Part shown: positions 22,119 to 34,786 of the stretch, one piece after another
How the letters are laid out: each line of letters opens with the position of its first letter
Position numbering within the stretch: position 1 is the first letter of the stretch
Assembly: GCA_963977015.1 (NCBI GenBank)
Contig: CAXBMO010000007.1
Span: 192,001 to 256,000 of the forward strand
Length of the DNA stretch: 64,000 bases
From: an uncultured bacterium
GTDB taxonomy: Bacteria; Verrucomicrobiota; Verrucomicrobiia; Verrucomicrobiales; DEV007
Reading direction: 5' to 3'
Notes under the pieces: model-generated
Databases searched by the model: none
Seen by the model: the letters and a program-made list of their open reading frames with translations, nothing else
What the model was told of the DNA's origin: nothing
Position numbers and translations under genes: made by a program

Positions 22119-22367
22119 GATGTTGGCGAAGATCGCTCCGTGACTCATCCTGTCAATTTCCGAACTGAGGATCGTCCAATCCGAGCGACTTTCACCTCTT
22201 ACCGCATTCCTCGTCGGTTCTGCCTGAAGTCCCTGATCACCGGTTCCAATCAATGCGCTGAAGCTCTACGATTTGGCCGAATTCGCTTGGTGAATCGAGC
22301 AATTCTTCGCAGTTTGTGTCTGTAGACCTGGATTTGGTCCGTGTATTCTATGTTTTGGATTCCAATC

Positions 22368-24785
22368 ATGCGCTTTCGACTCTTTACCGCTCTTTTGATC
22401 GGCCTCGGCTCTGCTTCGGCCTTGGCGCAATCTTTTGATGAGCCCTTGATCCCGTTTCTGGAGACCCACTGTTACGATTGCCACGACGACAGTCTGAAGA
22501 AGGGCGGTCTGGACCTGTTTGAGCTGGGTGTGGATTTGAGCGACGAAGCCGTTCAAGCGAAGTGGGTTCGCATTTATGATCGTGTGATGCGCGGCGAGAT
22601 GCCGCCGGAGGATAAGAAGCAACCTACAGAGGAAGAACGTCGCGCCTTCAGCCGGCATTTGGCGATGCCCATCGCGAAGGCTCACGAGGAATCCAAGGGC
22701 ACGGTTTTGCGGCGCCTGAACCGTGAAGAGTATGAAAATACGATGAACGACCTGTTCGGCACGAAGCTGGAATTGGCGAAGATTTTGCCCGAAGACGCCC
22801 GCTCCCACGAGTTCTCGAATGTGGGTGAGTCGCTCAGCATCTCCATGGTGCAGATGGAGCGTTATCTTCAGGCCGTCGACCTGGTGTGGGAGGATTTTAT
22901 CGTCGACGACATCAAAGGCCTGGAATCCAACGTGATCCGGGTCAGCTATGCGGAAACCCGGGAGGCCGAGAAGTTCATCGGCACGAGCTGGCATCAGGCA
23001 AAAGATGGGGCGGTGGTCTTTTTTCGGCGAGTGGGATACCCGACCGGAATGCTTCGTGGGTCGGGAGTTCGCGAACCCGGTCGCTACAAGATCCGCGTCA
23101 CCGGGTATGCCTATCAATCGGAGAACCCCATCACCTTCTTCCTCGGCGGAACGACGTTTGCCCGAGGCGTTGAGAAGCCGACTTACGGCTACTATCAATT
23201 GAAGCCGGGCAAGCCGCAGACGATCGAAATTGAGACCACGATTCCTCACAATTACATGGTTCAGATTGAGCCGGAAGGGATTTCGGTTTCCACTCCCGAA
23301 CTGAAGAAGATCGGCATCGAAAACTACAAGGGGCCGGGCCTCGCCATCAACCATGTCGAGATTGAAGGCCCGCTGGTGGAGGAGTTTCCGAAACGCGGAT
23401 ACCGTCTCATTTTCGACGGCATTGATCGCCATGAAGTGATGCCGAACAATCCCAAGGATCGGGAACGAAGCTATTATCGGCCGAAGTTTGACGTTACCTC
23501 GGAAGATCCAAGCCGCGACGCTGCGCAGTCGTTCAAACGCCTCGCGACCGCGGCCTTTCGACGCCCGGTCCAGAACGCTGAACTAACGCCTTACCTTGAC
23601 CTCTTCAATGCTGAAATGGAAAGTGGTTCCACTTTCGAAGAATCACTTCGGACGGGTGTAAAAGCCATTCTCTGTTCGCCCAATTTTCTCTTTCTGCGCG
23701 AGAAACCCGGCAAACTGGATGATTACGCGCTGGCGTCCCGGCTCTCCTACTTTCTCAATCGCACGAGCCCGGATGCGGAGTTGTTGGCCGACGCCGATGC
23801 CCGCCTGTTGGCCGGCGATCCCAAACGGTTGCTGAAGCATGCCGACCGATTGCTGGCGAAGCCTCATTCCGAGCGTTTCGTCATCGACTTTACCGATGCG
23901 TGGCTGGATTTGCGAAACATCGAGTTTACCGCGCCCGATCGAACTCTGTTTCCTGAGTTCGATCCGTTTCTGCAGTTTTCGATGCTGGCCGAATCCCGCG
24001 CGTTTTTCGAAGAATTGTTGGAGCAGAACCTGAGCGTTTCCAATCTCGTCAAATCCGACTTTGCCATGTTGAACAACCGGTTGGGTAGGCACTACGGAAT
24101 TGAGGGAGTGAAGAGCCCATCGATTCAACGCGTGAGCTTGCCCGCCGACAGTCCTCGTGGCGGCTTTCTCAGTCAGGGAAGCGTGCTGAAGGTTTCCGCC
24201 AATGGGACCAACACATCGCCTGTTGTTCGTGGAGTTTGGGTGATGGAACGCATTCTGGGGAAGACGCCACCTCCTCCGCCACCGGGAATCCCGGGAGTGG
24301 AACCCGATATTCGGGGAGCCGAGACCTTGCGGGATTTGCTCGACAAGCACCGAAATTCGGAAACCTGCCGGAGTTGTCACCAGATGATCGATCCGCCGGG
24401 TTTCGCGCTGGAAAGCTTCAATCCGATCGGTGGTTGGCGCGAGCAGTTTCGCAGCCTCAACAACAAGGACAAACGTCCTGAGATCATCGTCAACGGACAG
24501 AATGTTCGTTACCGCATCGGACCCGAAGTCGACTCAAGTGGTCAGCTTGCCGATGGAAGTGAGTTTGCCGGTTTCAATGAGTTCCGGACCTTGCTGGCTC
24601 AAGATCAATCCACCCTGGCCCGCGCCCTCGTAACCAAGTTCCTTATCTTTGCCACGGGCCGCGAAATGGGATTTTCGGACCGTCCTGAAATCAACCGGAT
24701 CGTGAAGACCGCCGCCAAGCAGGGATACGGGGTCCGTGATCTCTTGCATCTCGCGATTTCCAGCGACATTTTTCAAAACAAATAG
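22368..24785 (+). CDS. PVC-type cytochrome-c/DUF1587-1595-1592-1588-1585 domain protein
   Basis: Signal peptide, CYDCH, GEMPP, LRRLNREEYENT, AFRRP, LASRLSYFL, RGGFLSQG, TSPVVRGVW, CRSCH..IDPPGFALE, FATGR. Confidence 0.9.
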   Translation: MRFRLFTALLIGLGSASALAQSFDEPLIPFLETHCYDCHDDSLKKGGLDLFELGVDLSDEAVQAKWVRIYDRVMRGEMPPEDKKQPTEEERRAFSRHLAMPIAKAHEESKGTVLRRLNREEYENTMNDLFGTKLELAKILPEDARSHEFSNVGESLSISMVQMERYLQAVDLVWEDFIVDDIKGLESNVIRVSYAETREAEKFIGTSWHQAKDGAVVFFRRVGYPTGMLRGSGVREPGRYKIRVTGYAYQSENPITFFLGGTTFARGVEKPTYGYYQLKPGKPQTIEIETTIPHNYMVQIEPEGISVSTPELKKIGIENYKGPGLAINHVEIEGPLVEEFPKRGYRLIFDGIDRHEVMPNNPKDRERSYYRPKFDVTSEDPSRDAAQSFKRLATAAFRRPVQNAELTPYLDLFNAEMESGSTFEESLRTGVKAILCSPNFLFLREKPGKLDDYALASRLSYFLNRTSPDAELLADADARLLAGDPKRLLKHADRLLAKPHSERFVIDFTDAWLDLRNIEFTAPDRTLFPEFDPFLQFSMLAESRAFFEELLEQNLSVSNLVKSDFAMLNNRLGRHYGIEGVKSPSIQRVSLPADSPRGGFLSQGSVLKVSANGTNTSPVVRGVWVMERILGKTPPPPPPGIPGVEPDIRGAETLRDLLDKHRNSETCRSCHQMIDPPGFALESFNPIGGWREQFRSLNNKDKRPEIIVNGQNVRYRIGPEVDSSGQLADGSEFAGFNEFRTLLAQDQSTLARALVTKFLIFATGREMGFSDRPEINRIVKTAAKQGYGVRDLLHLAISSDIFQNK

Positions 24786-24812
24786 CCCCTTCCACTCCGT
24801 CCACCTTTCGCC

Positions 24813-26111
24813 ATGAACAGCCCTCACCTCGCTACCGGTTCCCACCTGAGCCGACGCCACTTTCTCCGCGGAACCGGCGCAGCCGCCTTGAGCCTTCCGA
24901 TTCTGGACGCCATGACTCCGGCGTTTGCCGCAACGGCCCCGGCAAAGTCGCCACCCCGATTTGTCGCGATGTGCGCCGGCCTCGGATTCCATACGCCTTA
25001 CCTGTTTCCTGAGAAACCCGGCAAAGACTATCAGGACACCCCCTACCTGAGCCGCTTGAAGGCGCATCGCAATCAGATGACGATCTTGTCGGGATTTTCA
25101 CATCCCGAACAACAGGGAAACAATGGACACGCATCCAGCCTGACGTGGTTGACCTCGGCAAAACGACCGGGGTTGGCAGGCTTCAAGAACAGCATCTCCC
25201 TTGATCAGCTGATTGCCAGCCAGATCGGGATTGAAACGCGATATCCCTACCTCACGCTTTCTTCTGGGGGCAGTTCGCTTTCCTGGACCTCCAACGGGGT
25301 CGAGATTCCAGCCCAGAATTCTCCCGCCAATATTTTCAAGGCGCTTTTTATCGATGGGACGGAAGCAGAGATTGCCGCTGAGATGCGAAGCTTCCAACGG
25401 GGACGAAGCATTATGGATACCGTATTGGGAGAAGCGAAGAAGCTGCACAATGAGCTGGGGCATCGCGACCAGGAGAAGCTTGACGAGTATCTGACTTCGG
25501 TTCGTGAGCTCGAACAACGCCTCCAGCAATCCGAGAACTGGTCCCAACAGCCCAAGCCCAAAATTGACGCCGAACCGCCTACCGACATTAGTGATCGGAA
25601 TGACATCATTGGGAAGCAACGGCTTCTGAATGACATGATCGTTCTGGCGCTGCAAACGGATTCGACAAGAACCGTGACGTTCCAATTGGGCAGTCTCAAC
25701 TCACCGCCCAGCAATATCGAGGGAGTGAACACCGATTGGCACAACCTCTCACACCACGGCAAGGACGAAGCCAAGATCGAAGAATTGAAACTGATTGAGG
25801 AAGCGGAGTTTGATGTCTTCAACGAGTTCCTCACCAAGCTCTCCAGCATCAACGAGAACGGCCAGACGCTCCTGGACCGCACATCGGTTCTGTATGGTTC
25901 GAATCTGGGGAATGCGAGCAGCCACAACTGGCGCAACCTTCCCTTGATCCTCGCCGGTGGCGGATTCAACCACGGTTCCTACATCGCGCATGATCCTGAC
26001 AACAATACGCCATTCGCCAACCTCCTGGTTCCGTTGGCGCAGCGCATGGGAGTCGAGATCGACCAGTTCGGGAGCAGCACCTCAGCGGGAATCGCGGAGT
26101 TGAGCGTGTGA
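24813..26111 (+). CDS. DUF1552 (HXXSHH) protein, Tat-exported
   Basis: Tat motif SRRHFLRG, LPILDAM, ISLDQ, SIMD, WHNLSHH, TLLD. Usual partner of DUF1592 proteins. Confidence 0.9.
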   Translation: MNSPHLATGSHLSRRHFLRGTGAAALSLPILDAMTPAFAATAPAKSPPRFVAMCAGLGFHTPYLFPEKPGKDYQDTPYLSRLKAHRNQMTILSGFSHPEQQGNNGHASSLTWLTSAKRPGLAGFKNSISLDQLIASQIGIETRYPYLTLSSGGSSLSWTSNGVEIPAQNSPANIFKALFIDGTEAEIAAEMRSFQRGRSIMDTVLGEAKKLHNELGHRDQEKLDEYLTSVRELEQRLQQSENWSQQPKPKIDAEPPTDISDRNDIIGKQRLLNDMIVLALQTDSTRTVTFQLGSLNSPPSNIEGVNTDWHNLSHHGKDEAKIEELKLIEEAEFDVFNEFLTKLSSINENGQTLLDRTSVLYGSNLGNASSHNWRNLPLILAGGGFNHGSYIAHDPDNNTPFANLLVPLAQRMGVEIDQFGSSTSAGIAELSV

Positions 26112-27214
26112 TCTACGACGTCATTGTTCTGGGAACGGGGGGAGTCGGCAGTGCCGCGCTTCACCATCTGGCACAGCGCGGAGTCCGGGTTCTCGGCCTT
26201 GATCAGTTTCCCGGCGGTCACAGCTTGGGGAGTTCGCACGGGGCGACGCGCATCATCCGCAAGGCCTACTTCGAACATCCCAATTACGTTCCCCTGCTGA
26301 ACCGTGCTTATGACCTGTGGAAAGCGCTCGAAGCGGAAACCCGGAAGCCGCTCTATGCCGAAACGGGCCTGGTTGAAGTTGGTCCACCCGATGGGGCGAT
26401 CGTTCCCGGCGTTCTCAAAGCCGCTGCGGAACACGGACTACCGGTCGAAACCATTGCCGAACGGGATTTCCGCGATCGTTTTCCCGCTCTGCGACTTCCC
26501 GAAGGGGCTGTTGCGTTGTTTGAACAGGAAGCGGGTTTCCTTCGGGTTGAAGACTGCGTTCTCGCGCATCTCCAGTCTGCGAGCGAACACGGTGCCAGTT
26601 GGAAACAGGAGAGCGTGATCGGCTGGGAAGCGGACGGTTCTGGAGTTGTGGTCGAGACATCTGAACAACGCTATCAGGCCCAGTCGCTTGCCATCGCCGC
26701 GGGCGCGTGGTCGGGCCCCATGCTTCGGGACATTGGGCATCCCCTGCGCATTTTGCTGCAACATCTACTTTGGTATGAAAGCGGCGAAGCTACGACGTTG
26801 GAATCCGGATTTCCCTGCTTTTTCTACGAAACCGGCGAGGGCTACTTCTATGGTTTTCCGAAACTCGACGCGCAGGGCTTGAAGGTGGCCGAGCATGGAG
26901 GAGGCGTCGAGATTCCAGTCCCCCAAAAGGCGGCAGAGGTTAATCCAAAGGTGGAGGGACGAATTGAAACGTTTCTTCGCGAAAACATCCCCAGTGTGTC
27001 CAACACAAGGACGCGCCATGAGTCGTGTTACTACACGATGTCCCGGGACGAACACTTCATCGTGGACCGTCACCCGATTCATGAGCAGGTCAGCTTTATC
27101 GCCGGGCTCTCCGGCCACGGATTCAAGTTCGCATCAGTTCTGGGTGAGGCATTGGCCGATTTGGCGACCGGGAAAAACCTTTCGAGCGAGTTTGATTTCC
27201 TGAGGCTTCGATAG
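26108..27214 (+). CDS. solA: N-methyl-L-tryptophan/sarcosine oxidase family flavoprotein
   Basis: GTGGVGS, GSSHGATRIIRKAYFE, CYYTMSRDEHFIVD (covalent-FAD Cys), GLSGHGFKFAS. Confidence 0.85.
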   Translation: MIYDVIVLGTGGVGSAALHHLAQRGVRVLGLDQFPGGHSLGSSHGATRIIRKAYFEHPNYVPLLNRAYDLWKALEAETRKPLYAETGLVEVGPPDGAIVPGVLKAAAEHGLPVETIAERDFRDRFPALRLPEGAVALFEQEAGFLRVEDCVLAHLQSASEHGASWKQESVIGWEADGSGVVVETSEQRYQAQSLAIAAGAWSGPMLRDIGHPLRILLQHLLWYESGEATTLESGFPCFFYETGEGYFYGFPKLDAQGLKVAEHGGGVEIPVPQKAAEVNPKVEGRIETFLRENIPSVSNTRTRHESCYYTMSRDEHFIVDRHPIHEQVSFIAGLSGHGFKFASVLGEALADLATGKNLSSEFDFLRLR

Positions 27215-27221
27215 ATTGGAT

Positions 27222-30200
27222 CTAACGAACCTCCAGCAGCACCGGTTGGGTTTCCCCACGAACTTCGGGCTCATAGTATTGATACGCGACGCTGGCTGGG
27301 GCCTGCACCTTGACCGGGAACTTTGCCCGCAACTGATAGCGGAACTGCAATGGCTTTCCATCTCCCGGAATCGCATTAAAATAGAGTGTGACTTGGCGTC
27401 CCTTTGGCTCGAATCGTTGGATGGTGCCCTTCTTCAACAACGCCTGAAAGGAGGCTGCCTCGATTTCAAAACCTGGTGGGATTCCGAGGTCAACCAGCGT
27501 CATGGGTGCAAAACCCGGGCGGTTGTAACGCAGGGTCACGTCAACGTTGAGAAGATCGCGGCTCGCCAATTCCGTCGTTTCGTAATCGGTTTCGATCTCC
27601 AGGATTTGCTCGGTTTCGCCTTCCTCGTCCGCATGAGGTTCGTAGTGCACCGCAACCAGCTGGTAGGCAAGGTTCGCCTCGCGATTGATGTTGAGAACGA
27701 CTTCGTTGTCCCCGGCTTTCACGAACTCGGTCAGACTGACCAGGTGGAAAACATCTGCGTTTTCCTTCGTAATTTCGAGCGGATTGGTCACGTCTCCATT
27801 TGCCGAGATCTGAACCGTCACGGCGCCTTTGATCTTACCTGCTGAGCCGGCCCCCATCAGCAAGGCGCGCATCGCCTGGACCGTCGCCTGAGTTGAATGC
27901 CAGGTTCCGCCGCTGTCACGCTGGGAGATCAGCCAGGCCAGGGCTTTGTGCGCCGTTGAAATAGAAGCATTCGCGCGCATCATCGCCTGGGCAATCAAGG
28001 CCGTGGTTTCAATGTCGAAAGAGCCACCCCGGCCATAGGTCAATCCCTCCCCTTCCGCTTTCCAAAACACAACGCCGTCCTGCTCCTGCTTCATCGAATC
28101 CAACTGGCGAATCACCTCACGCGCCTCCGCATCTCTTCCCGCCGTGACAAACGCGTTTGCGACCAACGCCAACGTGTAGGCGTCATTGACGCCGTCACTC
28201 TTCGCGGCCAGAAAGTCAAAGCTTGCATCCAGTTCCTTCCCGCCACCAGCTTCGGCAACGGCCCAGGCGATGTAAGCGGTGGAACGCAACGCCGCGTCTT
28301 CACGCGAGTTCTTGAAATTGTTGATCGCACCTTCAGCGATTCCACCCGTGGGAGGATCCCAGCTTCCATTATTCTGGCGCTGTTGCATGAGCCAGCTCCG
28401 CGTGCGCTCGATCACAGCTTGGTCGACTTCATAGACTTTGGCCATGTCCACGAACTCCATCAGGCCATACGCGGTCAGGATCGTGTGGGCCGGAGGATTT
28501 CCAAACCAATCAAATCCTCCTCCATTCACTTCGTAGGACAACAGTCGCTGATATCCCTGGGCAATAAAGTCCAAGGCCTTCATCTCCAATTCCGGCTTAG
28601 CCTGTTTCGTATCGCGAAGATAGTTCAACACCAGCACATTCGGATAGGTGGTCGATGAGGTTTGCTCGAAACAACCGTAGGGCATTCGGAAGATGGAGTC
28701 CATGCCCTCCACGACCTGGCTAAACGCTCCGGGATAGATCTTCACAAAGAGGTCACTGCCACCGGAAATCGCATTTGCCGGGATCTGGATGCTCTCCTGC
28801 GTTTCTGTTGTGAGCCTCCCATTCTTTACAAGCTCCATTCTCTCACCATTCGGAACCACCCGAACCGTGCGTTCAACGGCATCGGCCAACTTTGATCCCT
28901 GCGCAAAGACCGTGAGGGAGTGACGTCCCGCTTCCAGCGCGCGAATGCGATAGCTCGACTGCATCACTCCACCTCCCGAAGCTTCGAGTGTTTTTTCCGG
29001 GACGTCAGATACCAACTCATACCAGTCTTCGGCTTGGGCCTTGAGCTGAATCGATTGCGGCTCTGAGAGATAATTGAAAATGGCGATCGGAATCGTAATT
29101 TCGTCGCCCTGGGTCAGTTCAGTCGGGAAATCGATATCGATGAAGAAATCCTGGAATACACGAATTCCACGCTCAAACGAGCCGAGTGATCCGTCTCGCG
29201 ACACCGCACTTCCTGACAATCGCCAGGTCGTGATCGAGTCGGCGAGCGCCAACTCCAACGAAGCCTTCCCATCAGCACCGGTTAGAAGCTGCGGTTGCCA
29301 CAAGAGGGTCTCTGGGAAATGGCGGCGAATCCGGGGAGGTTCGGCTTCACTGCCATCGTGACCATTTGGACCAAGTGAGCCAGCTTCGGACCTTCCAAAA
29401 GCGGCCTCGGCCACCATCATGTCACCATCAAATCGTTCCGCCTTTTCGATGAAGACGTCCAATGCATTCTGGGTCCTCCCGCCGTCCGCAAACGCCCCCA
29501 ACTTGGAGAAGACCGCCAGAAGAATTACCGGGATCAGGGTGAAGGCGGTATTTGCCACGAGGATTCCCAGCCTTTGCGGAAGGGTTTGCCAACCGCTCAA
29601 GGACTTTCGCAGGAATCCAATCAGCCCCGCCAGCAAAAAGAGAATCACAAACGAAGCCAGGGTCAACCGCAGGAACGTCGATTCATGGATTGCAGAACGA
29701 TTCGACTCATTGGCGACGACGAACCCCGTTACCATGAGCCCGGAAAGGCCATAGACAATCGGGATCAACACGACCATCTGGCGGAACAGCGAGAGGTGCC
29801 TGCTAGAATGCTTCAGCCTGCGGAGCTCCGCAGATTTGATTCCGAGCCACACGGTTCCCGTGATCATCAACACTACCCAAATAACGAACGCCATGGGAGC
29901 GGATAGATAGCCGATCGCCCGGCCGATCAGCATCATCAGAATTGGAGGCGCCAGCGTCGCGGTCAGGATGATCCAGAAAAATTGGCGCATGCGTCGTTGA
30001 AATTCGATGAGGTGAAGTTCTTCGGACTCGCCCGGGCGGAAGCGCAAACGCGACAGTCCGTAGCCCGCAAAGACCAGCGAACAAACGATCAACAAGCCAA
30101 AAGGAAAGGTTACCAACAACCGGAACAACTCATCAGCATTCTGGCGCTTGCGTTCCTGCAGTTTATTGCGGCGCTCTGCCTGGGAACTGCTCTCCGCAGA

Positions 30201-32300
30201 GATCGGTCCGCCGGGATCGGCAGCCGCGGCGAAGGCAATGACATTCGCTTCTTCGAGCTCAGGCGTCGGCGCCCCGGGATCCGGTATTGCCGTGAAGTCT
30301 GACGGAGGTTGAGCGACAAACTGCGCTCTCGGTTTGAGGATTTCTTCCTGGATCAGGAAATACATTTCTTCCAGTCCGGGGCGAGAGTCGTTCAGTGCAA
30401 AAACGGCCTCATCAACTGCGGCAAGACTCAGGGCGGCCTCGACAGGTGATCCGTCCTTCGACGTGACCAGGAACTCGATCATTGCCTTCTCCGCGGGTCG
30501 ATACGTTTCGGCGTCGAGCTTGGCCTGAACCTGGAGTTGGTCCGCGCGATGCACCTGGATCAGCTTGGAATCCCGGGCGATGTCTCCGTTATCCAGAATT
30601 GCGTAGGCCTGCAGTTGAAGCGTCCCGGCAAGGTCGAGCGGGATATCGTAGGCATATTCTCCCATTCCGCGTTTCAACTCGATCGAGGACGTCGCCAAGG
30701 ATCGACCATTTTTCACAACATCGAGGAACACACGTTTCGCTTTTGACGCAGAAAGCACCTTCAAGTTGGCAGTCTGCCCCTGTCGGTAAATCGCCCCATC
30801 AGTCCTAAGCAGGATCCCATCGACCTGCACGCCAACCGCAAGCTCCTTGGTCACCTTCACCTCGGCACCCCGATCCGAGCGGGCTGAAAGCGACAGCTTC
30901 AAGTTCGGTTTGTCAGGAGTCAGCTTCACCTTGCCAATTCCCAACTCATTGGTTTCCACGCGAGACCCTCCTCCGGTGTAGATAACTGCTTTGGCAGGCG
31001 TCCCGTCCGGATAGGCCGCCACGATGTAGAGCGTATTCTCCACGTTTTGAACCAGTTCACCGCTTTCCGGGAAGACCTCGACGCGCAACGGCTGATTCGT
31101 CACCTTGACCTGAAGAGGATGTCTGCGGGTCTCACCGGTTGCATCGGTCACTTCGGCCGTGAACCGAACAAACGCGTCTCCCTGATTCAAGGACTGTCCA
31201 ACGAAGGCATCTTTGAGAGCAATCTCCGTTTCGAATGATCCCTGATCATTCGTCGTTCCTGTGACGGTTTGGAAGGTTCGAAACCGCTCGATAAACTCGT
31301 CTGAAACGATGCGGATCTTGCCTCCCGCAACCGGCTTTCCAAAGGTGTAGTCGGCATTCAACTCAAGCCGGACCTTGTCGCCCGGGGCATAGTAGCCGCG
31401 ATCCGCCCGAAGACTGACCTTGAACTTGGGAAGCACATAGCGCTCGACCTTCACCTCGCGCTCAGAGGTCGTGTCATCAATCGTGACCGCGATCGTATAG
31501 CTTCCTTCGTTGACCTGGTTCGCCAACTTGAAGTCCGCTGACGCGATGCCAAATTCGCTCGTGGCGATGAGCTTGCGGAACACCTTGTTCCCCTTTGCGT
31601 CCCTGACTTCAAAAGCCACCTCACGCGATGAGGCAGGTTTCAGGGAATCGGCCTCCATCGAAAGCGCCCGCATGTGAATGATCTGGCCGGGCTGATAGAG
31701 CGGCTTGTCCGTGCTTAGCATGGTTCGAAAGGATCGCCGAACCGTGATTGACTCCTCGGTGTTCGCCTTGCCGGATTTCCCGCGAACCTCGGCCACCAAC
31801 TTATAAGCCCCTTCCTCGACCGTATTTCTGACTTCGGCGGAGAGATCCGCAATCCCGTTCTCATCGGTTCGCGCAGAGCCGAGACGCCGCGATGATCCAT
31901 CATCCCCAATCATCATCACTCGGACCTTGGCATTCTCAACCGGCCGACGAGTTTCCTCACTTCGCACGAAAACTCGCACCGGCGTGATTTGCCCGGGTTC
32001 AACTCTTGGCTGCGTCACCATCACCACCTGCGTTGGATCGGGTTGTGCCGTTTCCACGACCCAGGTCTTGCCACCAAGTCCGATTGCGAAGAGAAAGGCG
32101 ATCAACGCCGCGACCTTCCAGAACCCGCCACTAAAGAGCCAGGGCCAAGCATTTTCGCTTTCACCGTCCTGCCCCCCGATTCGCCGCTTGACGGCAGCGA
32201 TGAAGCCTTCGTCATCTCCCGGTCCGCCCTTGCGACCGTATTCCTTCATCATGCCGTCCATTGCGGCATCTTTACTGTTTTCGTTAGGTTCTTCAGGCAT
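27222..32300 (-). CDS. Membrane-anchored thioester-containing alpha-2-macroglobulin-family protein with an anti-sigma-like N-terminus and a 6-TM insertion
   Basis: Start MPEEPNEN at 32300 overlaps the sigma stop. MG domains (STDKPLYQPGQ, RYVLPKF), AAVDEAVFAL, RRHFPETLLW, LADSITTW, thioester MPYGCFEQ, GTWHSTQATVQA, C-terminal MTLVDLGIPPGF...YQYYEPE. Confidence 0.9.
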   Translation of the reverse strand: MPEEPNENSKDAAMDGMMKEYGRKGGPGDDEGFIAAVKRRIGGQDGESENAWPWLFSGGFWKVAALIAFLFAIGLGGKTWVVETAQPDPTQVVMVTQPRVEPGQITPVRVFVRSEETRRPVENAKVRVMMIGDDGSSRRLGSARTDENGIADLSAEVRNTVEEGAYKLVAEVRGKSGKANTEESITVRRSFRTMLSTDKPLYQPGQIIHMRALSMEADSLKPASSREVAFEVRDAKGNKVFRKLIATSEFGIASADFKLANQVNEGSYTIAVTIDDTTSEREVKVERYVLPKFKVSLRADRGYYAPGDKVRLELNADYTFGKPVAGGKIRIVSDEFIERFRTFQTVTGTTNDQGSFETEIALKDAFVGQSLNQGDAFVRFTAEVTDATGETRRHPLQVKVTNQPLRVEVFPESGELVQNVENTLYIVAAYPDGTPAKAVIYTGGGSRVETNELGIGKVKLTPDKPNLKLSLSARSDRGAEVKVTKELAVGVQVDGILLRTDGAIYRQGQTANLKVLSASKAKRVFLDVVKNGRSLATSSIELKRGMGEYAYDIPLDLAGTLQLQAYAILDNGDIARDSKLIQVHRADQLQVQAKLDAETYRPAEKAMIEFLVTSKDGSPVEAALSLAAVDEAVFALNDSRPGLEEMYFLIQEEILKPRAQFVAQPPSDFTAIPDPGAPTPELEEANVIAFAAAADPGGPISAESSSQAERRNKLQERKRQNADELFRLLVTFPFGLLIVCSLVFAGYGLSRLRFRPGESEELHLIEFQRRMRQFFWIILTATLAPPILMMLIGRAIGYLSAPMAFVIWVVLMITGTVWLGIKSAELRRLKHSSRHLSLFRQMVVLIPIVYGLSGLMVTGFVVANESNRSAIHESTFLRLTLASFVILFLLAGLIGFLRKSLSGWQTLPQRLGILVANTAFTLIPVILLAVFSKLGAFADGGRTQNALDVFIEKAERFDGDMMVAEAAFGRSEAGSLGPNGHDGSEAEPPRIRRHFPETLLWQPQLLTGADGKASLELALADSITTWRLSGSAVSRDGSLGSFERGIRVFQDFFIDIDFPTELTQGDEITIPIAIFNYLSEPQSIQLKAQAEDWYELVSDVPEKTLEASGGGVMQSSYRIRALEAGRHSLTVFAQGSKLADAVERTVRVVPNGERMELVKNGRLTTETQESIQIPANAISGGSDLFVKIYPGAFSQVVEGMDSIFRMPYGCFEQTSSTTYPNVLVLNYLRDTKQAKPELEMKALDFIAQGYQRLLSYEVNGGGFDWFGNPPAHTILTAYGLMEFVDMAKVYEVDQAVIERTRSWLMQQRQNNGSWDPPTGGIAEGAINNFKNSREDAALRSTAYIAWAVAEAGGGKELDASFDFLAAKSDGVNDAYTLALVANAFVTAGRDAEAREVIRQLDSMKQEQDGVVFWKAEGEGLTYGRGGSFDIETTALIAQAMMRANASISTAHKALAWLISQRDSGGTWHSTQATVQAMRALLMGAGSAGKIKGAVTVQISANGDVTNPLEITKENADVFHLVSLTEFVKAGDNEVVLNINREANLAYQLVAVHYEPHADEEGETEQILEIETDYETTELASRDLLNVDVTLRYNRPGFAPMTLVDLGIPPGFEIEAASFQALLKKGTIQRFEPKGRQVTLYFNAIPGDGKPLQFRYQLRAKFPVKVQAPASVAYQYYEPEVRGETQPVLLEVR

Positions 32301-32817
32301 GATTTTCCGATTGTTGGGTGATGCATTTGCCCAATTGGGCGCGAGCGCGTTGCAGTCGTTTCCGAATGGCGGCCTCGTCGGCATCCAGCCGTTTGGCCAC
32401 CTCTACGCCACTCAGTTTTTGAAGATAAAATAGATCGACAGCCTTCCCCATTAATTCCGGCAACTTGCGAATGCAGCGATGCAAAACGGCGAACAGATCC
32501 GTGCCGGTTTCCGACTCTTGTTGATCCCAGGAACGATGCTGAGCTTCGATCGCCTCCAGCATTTCCTCATCCATGCCGACCAGTTTCTGGGCGCGGGCCC
32601 ATTCGCGAACTTTGTTCCGGACAATTCCTCGCATCCAACTGCCGAAATCCCGGGTGACATCGAATTTTTCCAGGTTGGTCCAGGCAATGACAAAGGCGTC
32701 TTGAACCAGATCGCGCGCGGCATCGTTCCCACCGGTAATCGAGAAAGCGTAAGCCAAAAGCCGGCGATGATGCTGCCGAACGAGAATTTCAAAGGCTTTG
32801 GAGGGGTCTTGCGTCAC
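32293..32817 (-). CDS. ECF-type RNA polymerase sigma-70 factor
   Basis: Region 2 (AFEILVRQH...ARDLVQDAF...DFGSWMRGIVRN) and region 4 (LHRCIRKLP...EVAKRL...AIRKRLQRARAQL). Confidence 0.93.
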   Translation of the reverse strand: MTQDPSKAFEILVRQHHRRLLAYAFSITGGNDAARDLVQDAFVIAWTNLEKFDVTRDFGSWMRGIVRNKVREWARAQKLVGMDEEMLEAIEAQHRSWDQQESETGTDLFAVLHRCIRKLPELMGKAVDLFYLQKLSGVEVAKRLDADEAAIRKRLQRARAQLGKCITQQSENHA

Positions 32818-32954
32818 GAATTCTGGACTTGAGTTGAGAGTAGTTGAAAAAGAAACGGGATTTGTGACATGGAATCTGAGAAAATGACACGATCCAATCC
32901 ATTCGGTGATTCTCTTGACTTAAGAGCCGACGATGAGACCGAACGAAACCTAAT

Positions 32955-33608
32955 ATGACGAAACGCGTCCTGACCCAAGAAATCCTCGATCAACTTGAGC
33001 ATGATCACCCGGATGCCTTGCGGAGCCGGGCGGACTTGATTCGGATCAATGGAATTTTGGGGAACTTTCGTTGGCTGCGCAAAGCCCTGGAAGAACAAGG
33101 GGCTGCTGATGGATCCGCACACGTCGTAGAGATTGGCGCTGGTGACGGCCACTTTATCAGGAAGTTCGCCGCCGCTCACCCCAAGGTGAACTACACCGCG
33201 ATCGACCTGGCTCCGAAGCCTCCGGAATGGCCCTCGAATTTGAATTGGAAGCAGGGCGATGCGTTGGATTGCCTTCCCGAAGTTGGAGGCGACATCTTGA
33301 TCGCAAATCTCTTTCTTCACCATCTGACCGACGCGCAATTGGCAAAACTCGGCGAAGGTTTGAGCGGCTATCGCGCCGTCATCTGCAATGAACCGGCTCG
33401 CTTCCGAGCCTTTCATGTTTTGGGAAAAGGCGTGCAACTGATCGGGGTCAATTACGTAACCCGTTTTGACATGCATGCGAGCATCAACGCCGGCTTCCGG
33501 CACACCGAACTGCCAACGGCTCTCGGACTGGAGCAAGCCGGTTGGCACATCGAAGCGTTTCATTCCATTTTTGGGATTTACCGAATGCTGGCCACTCAGG
33601 AGCGATGA
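32955..33608 (+). CDS. SAM-dependent methyltransferase
   Basis: EILD...DLIRINGILG, VVEIGAGDG, ANLFLHHL, VTRFD...SINAGF. Confidence 0.82.
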   Translation: MTKRVLTQEILDQLEHDHPDALRSRADLIRINGILGNFRWLRKALEEQGAADGSAHVVEIGAGDGHFIRKFAAAHPKVNYTAIDLAPKPPEWPSNLNWKQGDALDCLPEVGGDILIANLFLHHLTDAQLAKLGEGLSGYRAVICNEPARFRAFHVLGKGVQLIGVNYVTRFDMHASINAGFRHTELPTALGLEQAGWHIEAFHSIFGIYRMLATQER

Positions 33609-34786
33609 ATCGGTTTTTTGACGTTGTGATTGTGGGGGCCGGTCCCGCGGGGCTGGCCGCAGCCGCCTGCCTGGGCCGCCACGGCTTGAAAATCGCAATT
33701 CTCGATCGCCGCAGCCTCCCGATCGACAAACCTTGCGGCGAAGGGGTCATGCCTCCCGGGGTGGCCATTTTGAAGAAATTGGGGGCAACCCCGTTTCTCA
33801 ACCAATCCGATTTTCACCCGTTTCACGGGATCCGGTATCTCACCCCGACCGGCAGGGTGGCGAAAGCTGACTTTGCCGAAGGCCCGGGACTCGGCATTCG
33901 CCGAACAAACCTCTCGCAGGCTCTCACGCATCTTCTGGATTCAATGCCAACCGTTGAGATCCACGAGAACACTCGCGTTCAAGGCATTGAGCAACACGAA
34001 AGCGGGGTTTCCATTCAATCGAACCGTGGCGATTTCGAGACACGCCTTTTGCTGGGAGCCGACGGGCTGCATTCCCGGGTTCGGAAATGGGCTGGGCTCG
34101 AAGGGAAAGCATCGCGGCATCGGCGACTCGGAATTCGCCGCCATTTCGAAGTTGAGCCCTGGAGCCGGTTTGTCGATGTCCACTCCGGTCCCGGCGTTGA
34201 GGCTTATGTGACGCCCTGTGGCCCGAATCAAGTCGGCATTGCCTGTCTATGGGAGCGTGACACCTATCCGGACGCCGAGCCGGGAAAAGACTTGCTGGAC
34301 TCGCTTCTGAAAGAGTTTCCTGACATTCAAAGAAAACTTGAGGGAGCCAAGCCCCTTTCGGAAACGCTTACAACGGGGCCACTGGAACAGAAGACTCGAC
34401 GGCGCGTTTCCGACTCCATCATCCTCATCGGAGACGCCGCCGGTTACCTGGATGCCTGCACCGGAGAAGGAATTACTTTGGCACTGAAGCAAGCGCAGCT
34501 TCTGGAATCCCACCTCGTTCCGCTTCTCGCCGGTTCGAGGGGGTTGATCCGGTCGAACCAGCTTCGCAACTATGAGGCGGCTTGTCGCAGGGTGTTGGCG
34601 TCCTACTATCTGGGAACACATTTCCTGTTGCTCCTGAATCGGCAGCCGCGGTTCATGGAGATCTTTGTTCGCGTATTGAGCCAACGCCCGGCGCTCTTGC
34701 AGCATCTTCTCTCCTTCAACATGGGGACGGTTCCACTGTGGCCAAGTCGGGCCTCTCTTCATCGCATTCTCGAATCCCATGCCTAA
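33605..34786 (+). CDS. NAD(P)/FAD-dependent oxidoreductase (geranylgeranyl-reductase/monooxygenase-like)
   Basis: GAGPAG, DKPCGEG, GADGLHS, IGDAAGYLDACTGEG. ATGA-coupled to the methyltransferase. Confidence 0.85.
   Translation: MNRFFDVVIVGAGPAGLAAAACLGRHGLKIAILDRRSLPIDKPCGEGVMPPGVAILKKLGATPFLNQSDFHPFHGIRYLTPTGRVAKADFAEGPGLGIRRTNLSQALTHLLDSMPTVEIHENTRVQGIEQHESGVSIQSNRGDFETRLLLGADGLHSRVRKWAGLEGKASRHRRLGIRRHFEVEPWSRFVDVHSGPGVEAYVTPCGPNQVGIACLWERDTYPDAEPGKDLLDSLLKEFPDIQRKLEGAKPLSETLTTGPLEQKTRRRVSDSIILIGDAAGYLDACTGEGITLALKQAQLLESHLVPLLAGSRGLIRSNQLRNYEAACRRVLASYYLGTHFLLLLNRQPRFMEIFVRVLSQRPALLQHLLSFNMGTVPLWPSRASLHRILESHA

Follow-up and report, generated by a model that had tools for sequence, protein, structure and literature searches.

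A predicted anti-sigma factor built as a membrane-embedded thioester macroglobulin in an uncultured Verrucomicrobiales bacterium

Why should the gene of an extracytoplasmic function (ECF) sigma factor overlap the gene of an alpha-2-macroglobulin (A2M)? This arrangement is found in an uncultured bacterium of the Verrucomicrobiales (GenBank assembly GCA_963977015.1) on the 64,000 nt stretch of contig CAXBMO010000007.1 between positions 192,001 and 256,000, which we call the window and to which all coordinates refer. On the minus strand of the window the open reading frame (ORF) of the sigma factor (32293-32817, 174 aa) runs from a GTG start to a TGA stop at 32293-32295, and the A2M ORF extends in frame from an ATG at 32300 to 27222 (1692 aa). 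The 3' end of the former and the 5' end of the latter share 8 nt, the octamer ATGCCTGA. An A2M start at 32384, which would give the longest possible ORF, was rejected: it falls within sigma region 4 and relatives do not conserve it, such that the start at 32300 is likely. ECF sigma/anti-sigma pairs are a major route of bacterial envelope sensing, and for most groups the signal is unknown. An earlier reading of the locus (the original prediction) had noted the overlap of the A2M start with the sigma stop, which the ORFs confirm, and had described the A2M as being built like an anti-sigma factor. This description held up against the complex model, the zinc-finger homologues, the synteny, the gene loss in a relative and the promoter presented below. 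We consider it very likely that the A2M N-terminus binds and inhibits the overlapping sigma factor. That the locus as a whole forms an autoregulated ECF sigma/anti-sigma operon, whose anti-sigma factor is a full-length, membrane-embedded A2M of the thioester-containing protein (TEP) kind, appears on balance probable.

ECF (group 4) sigma-70 factors contain regions 2 and 4 only and comprise about 170-200 aa. The 174 aa protein agrees with this description: Pfam detected Sigma70_r2 at residues 12-78 (6.4e-16), Sigma70_r4_2 at residues 112-162 (5.9e-10) and no other domain, and the general ECF model TIGR02937 was passed with 88.4 bits at a cut-off of 42.9. The best NCBIfam subfamily match, TIGR02989 (Rhodopirellula/Verrucomicrobium), scored 114.8 bits and remained under its cut-off of 124.55, such that the sigma factor is related to this subfamily and was not assigned to it as a member. 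The nearest solved structures were SigW, SigH, SigE and CnrH (3e-08 for CnrH).

The A2M starts with about 57 polar residues ahead of its first hydrophobic helix. With this length the n-region greatly exceeds that of a Sec signal peptide, and residues 1-110 contain no Cys and hence no lipobox, in line with the earlier statement that a lipoprotein signal is absent. An AlphaFold2 (AF2) model of residues 1-1100 (47-row alignment) had a mean predicted local distance difference test score (pLDDT) of 77.7 and a predicted template modelling score (pTM) of 0.57. In this model the N-terminus contained two short helices (residues 12-23 and 30-42), followed by a long helix (58-84) that constitutes the first transmembrane (TM) helix, TM1. 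Conservation in this N-terminal part follows the pattern A-x-DG-x-x-(R/K)E-Y-x-R-x-G-x-x-DDE-x-F-I-x-x-V-x-x-x-I. When shorter proteins with residues 1-85 in common were sought by a word-based search, a single fragment of the same family came back, and a 5-row alignment of close N-termini used as query matched only 3 metagenome loci.

The complex of the sigma factor (51-row alignment) with A2M residues 1-57 (31 rows) was modelled in three runs and compared with three controls. The interface score ipSAE (interaction prediction score from aligned errors) was 0.90 in each of the runs and 0.00 for the best control. At least 86% of the contacts agreed between the runs, and the pLDDT of the A2M partner was 67-71. 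The ipSAE mark had been calibrated on 80 solved complexes, 58 of which attained it, and on 110 mismatched pairs, 2 of which did. In the predicted interface A2M residues 5-23 and 30-42 contact the sigma factor at residues 6-46 (region 2), 86-97, 108-116 and 127-163 (region 4). The model supports a predicted binding of the A2M N-terminus to the sigma factor.

To see how the N-terminus varies in the family we used 1532 homologues found at E <= 0.001, with detailed counts taken from the best 120. Ahead of the conserved juxtamembrane segment the N-termini are interchangeable and consist of a zinc finger, one of two FecR-like helical types, the motif of the window, or nothing. A class I anti-sigma domain (zinc-binding anti-sigma, ZAS; zf-HC2) carries HxxxCxxC within a bundle of about 80-90 aa and three to four helices. 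In 19 of the 120 homologues HxxxCxxC is present at about residue 29, and one of the homologues (P0047) matches zf-HC2 with 29.0 bits at a Pfam cut-off of 22.2. Automated annotation names another (P0054) 'anti-sigma factor RsiW' in one source, and others 'MG2 domain-containing protein'. The two helical types resemble the N-termini of FecR-like proteins, which are encoded after most of the 36 ECF sigma matches in the genome of the window, and the '..LLDGEL..E..EL..' N-terminus of some members is likewise found after most of these matches.

The gene neighbour also followed the type of N-terminus. For Planctomycetota we inspected the 5' regions of 22 homologues from a sample of 401 genomes, which were grouped by N-terminus and counted by neighbour, related genomes not being independent. 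All 12 genes with a cytoplasmic anti-sigma-like N-terminus had a same-strand ECF sigma gene just upstream (11 abutting or within about 150 nt, 1 about 550 nt off), compared to 0 of 10 genes with a signal-peptide-like N-terminus that had a sigma gene within 3 kb. A contrast set of 80 loci was obtained by scanning genome contigs with general patterns of the thioester-containing domain (TED); it holds mostly signal-peptide A2Ms of other phyla and few members of the window clade. An adjacent same-strand sigma gene was present only in three of these loci (L002, L004 and L013), all with N-terminal extensions. At a further locus (L071) the contig starts with a truncated sigma end, followed by a 180-aa ORF and the A2M. 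As a separate observation, in L004 (4746-10944, from a metagenome-assembled genome (MAG) of the Sedimentisphaerales) the sigma gene overlaps the A2M start by 8 nt, and the A2M has about five extra TM helices before its first macroglobulin (MG) domain and no recognisable anti-sigma domain.

Among closer relatives, the sigma gene abuts the A2M gene in the same way in three genomes (G403, G410 and G301) and in a metagenome locus (L119). In two genomes motif and sigma factor are lost together: G402, of the same genus and with an A2M of 68% identity, has no motif left, and a sigma orthologue was not found in it (best match 30% identical); G427 lacks the motif's first half, and its closest sigma match has 35% identity. 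For ten of the closest sigma homologues the longest contig of the source assembly equals in size that of an assembly with an A2M homologue or locus (8 A2M homologues, the fragment P0124 and locus L119), which suggests that they co-reside with A2M homologues. In G427 we also noticed a gene pair (L110, 1387-3490 of G427:C20) in which the 35% identical sigma paralogue is followed by a membrane protein with a related N-terminal motif, LMDSLLREFADRG..DDAFL. This protein, the only other carrier of the motif that was seen, has a different, long ectodomain with a vWA-like N-terminal segment at its end. It hints that the short motif may be a reusable anti-sigma module.

The remainder of the protein is a macroglobulin. 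All six Pfam families of the A2M/TEP superfamily were above their cut-offs and in canonical order: MG2, MG3, A2M_BRD (498-636), A2M (998-1087), TED_complement (1193-1480, 3.4e-48) and A2M_recep (1600-1683). In the AF2 model MG1-MG6 formed beta-sandwich domains at pLDDT 80-94, and this ring matched CD109, C3b, C4b and A2M in Foldseek searches (E about 1e-28). The thioester motif GCFEQ, at residues 1209-1213, corresponds to the CxEQ signature of the superfamily. The original prediction had placed it at 28662-28673, to which CFEQ maps exactly. It is kept in 112 of the best 120 homologues, the other 8 being truncated records, and together with the surrounding TED residues it is invariant across the aligned family members. 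The sequence matches to solved structures (CD109 7.2e-77, human A2M about 3e-68, TEP1 5.8e-50, E. coli YfhM 1.2e-12) place the protein with the eukaryote-like TEP/CD109/A2M type rather than with the YfhM/ECAM type, in contrast to the anatomy assumed at first. The earlier observation that no pbpC lies next to the gene is retained: no pbpC adjoins the A2M gene, whose neighbours encode a DAO-type oxidoreductase and a methyltransferase-like protein, the search for pbpC having covered these neighbours and not the remainder of the genome.

Hydropathy revealed seven hydrophobic helices, TM1 at residues about 58-80 and six more at about 707-938. The original prediction had described ~55 soluble residues followed by a single TM helix; the polar stretch and TM1 are present, and the six later helices, which AF2 also gives, had been overlooked. 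The six-helix insert sits between the bait-region domain (498-636) and the R-x-R-R-x-FPETL motif that opens A2M/MG7. Its helices are long, with pLDDT values of 83-92 within the model of residues 1-1100, and the insert folded alone reached a pLDDT of 90.0 and a pTM of 0.83. On both sides of this bundle the pLDDT dropped below 50, at residues 634-676 and 939-992 (30-38 for the latter), and the alignment columns are variable across both linkers up to the conserved R-x-R-R-x-FPETL. In the A2M/TEP superfamily a protease-sensitive, exposed bait region or an anaphylatoxin domain separates the two halves of MG6 at this point; in the window protein the position is occupied by a six-TM bundle with two disordered, variable linkers, these linkers being candidate bait only. 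In 76 family members with seven predicted TM helices the mean number of Lys and Arg per loop alternated as 5.9 / 1.1 / 4.8 / 1.0 / 3.2 / 1.5, which fits a topology with the N-terminus inside and both halves of the A2M outside.

By hydropathy the insert is retained in 107 of the best 120 homologues, the other 13 having a signal-like N-terminus only. A phmmer search against 1.84 billion representatives found no stand-alone relatives of the insert (residues 700-960): it returned 8 proteins at E <= 0.001, of which 2 were known family members and 6 were judged by alignment position to be fragments of the same family. Structure comparison with VIA-align yielded no fold assignment, with generic helical bundles as matches and a best Z of 10.6, where about 13 is advised for bundles. 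The insert is evolving fast. Its only well-conserved motif, RRL-x6-PLFR(K/R), is found in the loop that joins inserted helices 3 and 4 on the cytoplasmic side. This loop (29700-29790 on the minus strand, residues about 822-842) is a possible contact for the tail, the sigma factor or a protease.

Several observations weigh against an anti-sigma function of the A2M. The ipSAE is the model's own confidence and may partly mirror learned likeness, because sigma/anti-sigma complexes are abundant among solved structures. Residues 1-57 match no anti-sigma profile of Pfam or NCBIfam and contain neither His nor Cys, such that they do not belong to the class I ZAS domains, and a hidden Markov model of the motif found no further copy in the 6.9-Mb genome. 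The segment before TM2 is rich in Lys and Arg (mean 3.6 in 15 residues), which fits poorly with its predicted outside location. The same six-TM insert also occurs without an anti-sigma N-terminus (e.g. in P0084-P0086, P0115 and P0119), which implies a role of the insert that is independent of signalling. These members indicate that the membrane-embedded A2M is the older or more general invention, with sigma coupling as an add-on that employs several N-terminal modules. Finally, the two genes are not always neighbours. Adjacency in relatives had been proposed in the original prediction as a test; it is found at the four loci named above and absent from G401, a genome of the same genus in which the motif is intact and the sigma orthologue (76% identity) lies on another contig. 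Either the genes were rearranged with a breakpoint precisely at their junction, or the split is an artefact of assembly or binning (genome 87% complete, 4% contamination). Of the two separated G401 genes (loci L099 and L108), the sigma gene has kept its promoter and upstream neighbours, and nothing anti-sigma-like lies downstream of it. At two metagenome loci (L120 and L121) the motif is present and no sigma gene is found in the 595-1187 nt available upstream. Their 136-aa ORF (L120 1188-1531, L121 596-1006) comprises the motif, TM1 and a short tail; it represents a remnant left by truncation or else a minimal anti-sigma factor that acts alone.

One could read residues 1-57 plus TM1 as an uncleaved signal-anchor, the gene overlap as a means of co-expression only, and the sigma factor as being controlled by something else. 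The missing profile match and the unlinked genes of G401 speak for this explanation. It leaves, however, the strong conservation of the cytoplasmic motif, the complex score of 0.90 against 0.00 for the best control, the tracking of adjacency with the N-terminal extension (12/12 against 0/10), the joint loss of motif and sigma factor in G402 and G427, and the zf-HC2 domain in homologues without account. We consider the signal-anchor explanation highly improbable and return to the A2M N-terminus as sigma-binding module.

What the sigma factor controls was addressed through its promoter. An alignment of the 260 nt upstream of the sigma gene revealed the consensus TGTCACAWWTC-N11/12-TCAA in 6/6 orthologous loci. 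In the window this candidate promoter has its -35 element TGTCAC at 32869-32864 and its -10 element TCAA at 32847-32844, the latter about 27 nt ahead of the GTG. A single copy of the strict pattern is present in the 6.9-Mb genome (G000), at this operon, with about 0.1 matches expected by chance in a back-of-envelope estimate. Looser patterns gave 10-13 genomic matches with no convincing downstream genes, i.e. no wider regulon was detected with them. The promoter was also seen where the genes are separated: in L120 and L121 TGTCACAAATC...TCAA directly precedes the motif-bearing gene, and the unlinked A2M gene of G401 has a two-mismatch copy, GGTCACAAATC-N11-GCAA, about 50 nt upstream. The sigma factor probably drives little besides its own gene and the A2M gene. 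Since this genome has the promoter at its own operon and nowhere else, the circuit appears mainly to produce more sigma factor and more A2M. The trap would then be the main product of its own alarm, i.e. a self-amplifying defence module.

A circuit whose sole evident output is its own two genes, and in which sigma and anti-sigma factor are translationally coupled, may also be nothing but a homeostatic loop. The tail would titrate the sigma factor and thereby self-limit the A2M copy number, and induction would follow from dilution or turnover of the A2M and not from a dedicated external signal. Against this stands that a costly 1692-aa thioester protein with a conserved, sensor-like architecture is maintained by selection across PVC (Planctomycetota-Verrucomicrobiota-Chlamydiota) phyla together with three different anti-sigma modules, a convergence that is more easily explained by signal-dependent regulation. 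In addition, the turnover of a suicide trap is itself signal-dependent. Pure homeostasis therefore appears improbable to us, and we continue with a signal-dependent anti-sigma factor.

For this factor we propose the following mechanism. In the resting state the two short cytoplasmic helices within the first ~45 A2M residues would wedge between sigma regions 2 and 4, as predicted by the complex model, and keep the sigma factor off RNA polymerase as do the short class II domains of the CnrY type. From the cytoplasmic N-terminus TM1 would lead to the periplasmic MG1-MG6 ring, the chain would then dip through the inner membrane with six TM helices at the bait position, and the MG7-CUB-TED-RBD half (RBD, receptor-binding domain) would again be periplasmic. 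An attack on the ectodomain may destabilise or truncate the A2M, either by cleavage of a linker beside the bundle or by consumption of the thioester; in the simplest case a foreign or mislocalised protease would cut the linkers and the thioester would fire. Regulated proteolysis of the kind known from RseA or RsiW, by a site-2 protease and cytoplasmic proteases, could subsequently remove TM1 and the cytoplasmic tail. The freed sigma factor would allow the cell to replace and amplify the trap. That the trigger in nature is an attack by proteases on the ectodomain, as the original prediction had it, we regard as a serious possibility that falls somewhat short of being probable.

The anti-sigma factor may alternatively respond to a non-proteolytic cue. 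Here the bundle or the thioester would sense, for example, a perturbed membrane, a surface that bears nucleophiles, or stress at the envelope or from cell contact. TM1 and the bundle would pass this on as a conformational signal, on the model of CnrYX or FecR-type systems, and the protein would not work as a trap sprung by bait cleavage. A folded six-helix membrane domain (pLDDT 90) in place of the canonical bait agrees with this idea, as does the conserved cytoplasmic loop RRL...PLFR, which suggests a function at the membrane or its cytoplasmic face. The insert is, moreover, present in members that lack the anti-sigma tail, and the predicted sigma-binding part is similar to the short class II domains, whose founding member is not known to use proteolysis for signalling. 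The two long, disordered and hypervariable linkers that flank the bundle (pLDDT below 50) are, however, bait-like, the remaining A2M/TEP machinery including the invariant thioester motif is kept, and no ligand-binding domain is evident. A non-proteolytic cue is thus rather unlikely in our view, and the protease-triggered release remains the preferred account. The features on which it is built are collected in Table 1.

Table 1. Features of the sigma/A2M operon in the window, and related loci with TGA at the thioester position
Feature	Position (nt)	Strand	Basis
Candidate ECF-type promoter, TGTCACAAATC-N11-TCAA	32844..32869	-	conservation, genome scan
ECF sigma factor (174 aa), limited to regions 2 and 4	32293..32817	-	Pfam, NCBIfam
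Predicted sigma-binding module, A2M residues 5-42, two short helices	32175..32288	-	conservation, AF2, complex model
TM helix 1, residues about 58-80, after conserved juxtamembrane W-P-W-L-F	32061..32129	-	hydropathy, AF2, family alignment
Periplasmic MG1-MG6 ring, residues about 90-630, with MG2, MG3, A2M_BRD	30411..32033	-	Pfam, AF2, Foldseek
Linker 1, residues 634-706, variable, partly disordered, candidate bait	30183..30401	-	AF2 pLDDT, alignment
Six-helix membrane bundle, residues 707-938, at bait/anaphylatoxin (ANA) position	29487..30182	-	hydropathy, AF2, loop K+R counts
Linker 2, residues 939-992, disordered, variable, ends in PPRIRRHFPETLLW, second candidate bait	29325..29486	-	AF2 pLDDT, alignment
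Periplasmic C-terminal half: A2M/MG7, CUB-like region, TED 1193-1480, receptor-binding-type domain 1600-1683, stop codon	27222..29324	-	Pfam, PDB matches
Thioester motif C-F-E-Q (Cys1210, Gln1213, within GCFEQTSS)	28662..28673	-	sequence
TGA loci L133-L137, L141-L144, L146, L148, L151	genomes G599, G816, G580, G668, G745, G652, G469, G648, G631, G463, G684, G760		

How the proposed system relates to known ones can be seen from both of its ends. At the cytoplasmic end it is closest to CnrH-CnrY (complex 4cxf). CnrY is a protein of about 95 aa whose class II domain is clamped between regions 2 and 4, with sensing being performed by the separate protein CnrX. The window peptide is similarly short (under 50 residues plus TM) and has a predicted position between regions 2 and 4 of the sigma factor, a likeness that concerns the predicted interface and not sequence homology to CnrY; its tail is fused, however, to a 1600-aa thioester protein. 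The class I zinc anti-sigma factors (RsiW, RslA, ChrR; zf-HC2; regulated intramembrane proteolysis) share the order of a sigma gene followed by a membrane anti-sigma factor with an extracytoplasmic domain, and homologues of the window A2M carry zf-HC2 itself. The window protein differs from them in having two short helices only, without a His/Cys motif, and, whereas they are single-pass proteins, in having as ectodomain an A2M with six further membrane re-entries.

At the extracytoplasmic end the relatives are CD109, alpha-2-macroglobulin, A2ML1, insect TEP1 and C3/C4/C5. They have the same domain order (MG1-6, bait/ANA position, MG7, CUB, TED with GCxEQ, MG8/RBD) and also provide the best sequence and fold matches. 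These eukaryote-type TEPs are soluble or glycosylphosphatidylinositol (GPI)-anchored and contain a bait or anaphylatoxin, in contrast to the cytoplasmic tail, the seven TM helices and the bundle at the bait site of the window protein. With the bacterial A2Ms YfhM/ECAM and Salmonella A2M, which have a thioester and pbpC, and with the thioester-less MagD/YfaS it shares the envelope location, and the thioester motif is kept as in ECAM. It departs from YfhM/ECAM by lacking a lipobox and an adjacent pbpC and by being TM-anchored and sigma-coupled, and its similarity to YfhM is weak (1.2e-12 compared to 7.2e-77 for CD109).

The literature searched yielded no paper that describes an anti-sigma factor of the A2M/TEP kind, or a membrane bundle at the bait site of an A2M. 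The main text of the ECF re-classification (PMC7826278) contains 'macroglobulin' or 'MG2' 0 times, and its supplementary group tables could list this context. The sensor/effector domain and the topology of the A2M are therefore unprecedented as far as this search reaches, the pairing between an ECF sigma factor and a membrane anti-sigma factor being known as such.

For A2M/TEP proteins the chemistry is understood in animals, where bait cleavage leads to thioester firing and a large conformational change. A sensor domain from such a family provides a concrete, testable hypothesis for the input of the sigma factor. For A2M and complement biology, the predicted structure would represent a TEP of eukaryote-like type that crosses the membrane seven times, a membrane domain that is folded and takes the position of bait or anaphylatoxin, and a direct wiring of a TEP to transcription. 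Given the size of the family (1532 homologues), the arrangement is widespread and not a one-off.

One may extend the proposal to the whole PVC superphylum, in which these proteins would act as 'transmembrane thioester sentinels', with the window protein as their founding example. The bundle with its two tethers would serve as bait, an envelope attack by a predator, a phage or a competitor enzyme would fire the thioester at the inner membrane, and interchangeable anti-sigma modules would release a dedicated ECF sigma factor, such that sensor, effector and switch are united in one polypeptide. In some Planctomycetota a selenocysteine (selenoester) would tune the reactivity. In this full form the idea is speculative and we hold it to be doubtful.

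The selenocysteine part goes back to a side observation. Among 30 A2M/TEP loci of Planctomycetota, 12 carried an in-frame TGA exactly at the thioester cysteine (MP-x-G-[TGA]-FEQT), one per gene (Table 1), 14 read GCFEQ, and 4 were unmatched by the pattern. The 60 nt after the TGA formed a more stable hairpin, with a mean minimum free energy of about -18.5 kcal/mol compared to -11.4 kcal/mol in the Cys forms, with different stems at the same place. A selB gene above the curated cut-off was detected in 5 of 6 TGA-bearing genomes checked, G559 being counted among them, and in 1 of 4 genomes in which only Cys forms were seen. At least one of the TGA forms (L134 with 5' region L153, in G816) combines the TGA with an N-terminus of the ZAS-anti-sigma type and a neighbouring sigma gene. 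TGA at this position likely encodes selenocysteine, which would make these proteins candidate 'selenoester' TEPs. No paper on a selenocysteine A2M was found in the literature searched. If confirmed, the variants would constitute a new selenoprotein class. The window A2M itself encodes Cys at the thioester position.

The operon is flanked by a convergent gene for a DAO-type oxidoreductase (26108-27214, plus strand) and, on the other side, by divergent genes for a methyltransferase-like protein (32955-33608, plus strand) and a FAD monooxygenase-like protein. The 5' end of the methyltransferase-like gene also lies upstream of the sigma gene in G401 and G403. An ORF upstream of the sigma gene (32814-33698, minus strand) was discarded as probably spurious, as it has no Pfam match and lies opposite the methyltransferase-like gene. 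Further off (22341-26111, plus strand) the window encodes a PSD/PSCyt multi-domain protein (DUF1592, DUF1588, DUF1587, DUF1585, DUF1595, Planctomycete cytochrome c), after which comes a DUF1552 protein with a twin-arginine translocation (TAT) signal. PSD/PSCyt and DUF1552 genes are a common pair of unknown function in the PVC superphylum. The closest named locus (L001) stems from a MAG of an uncultured Verrucomicrobiales bacterium, and DNA of this stretch occurs in marine metagenomes.

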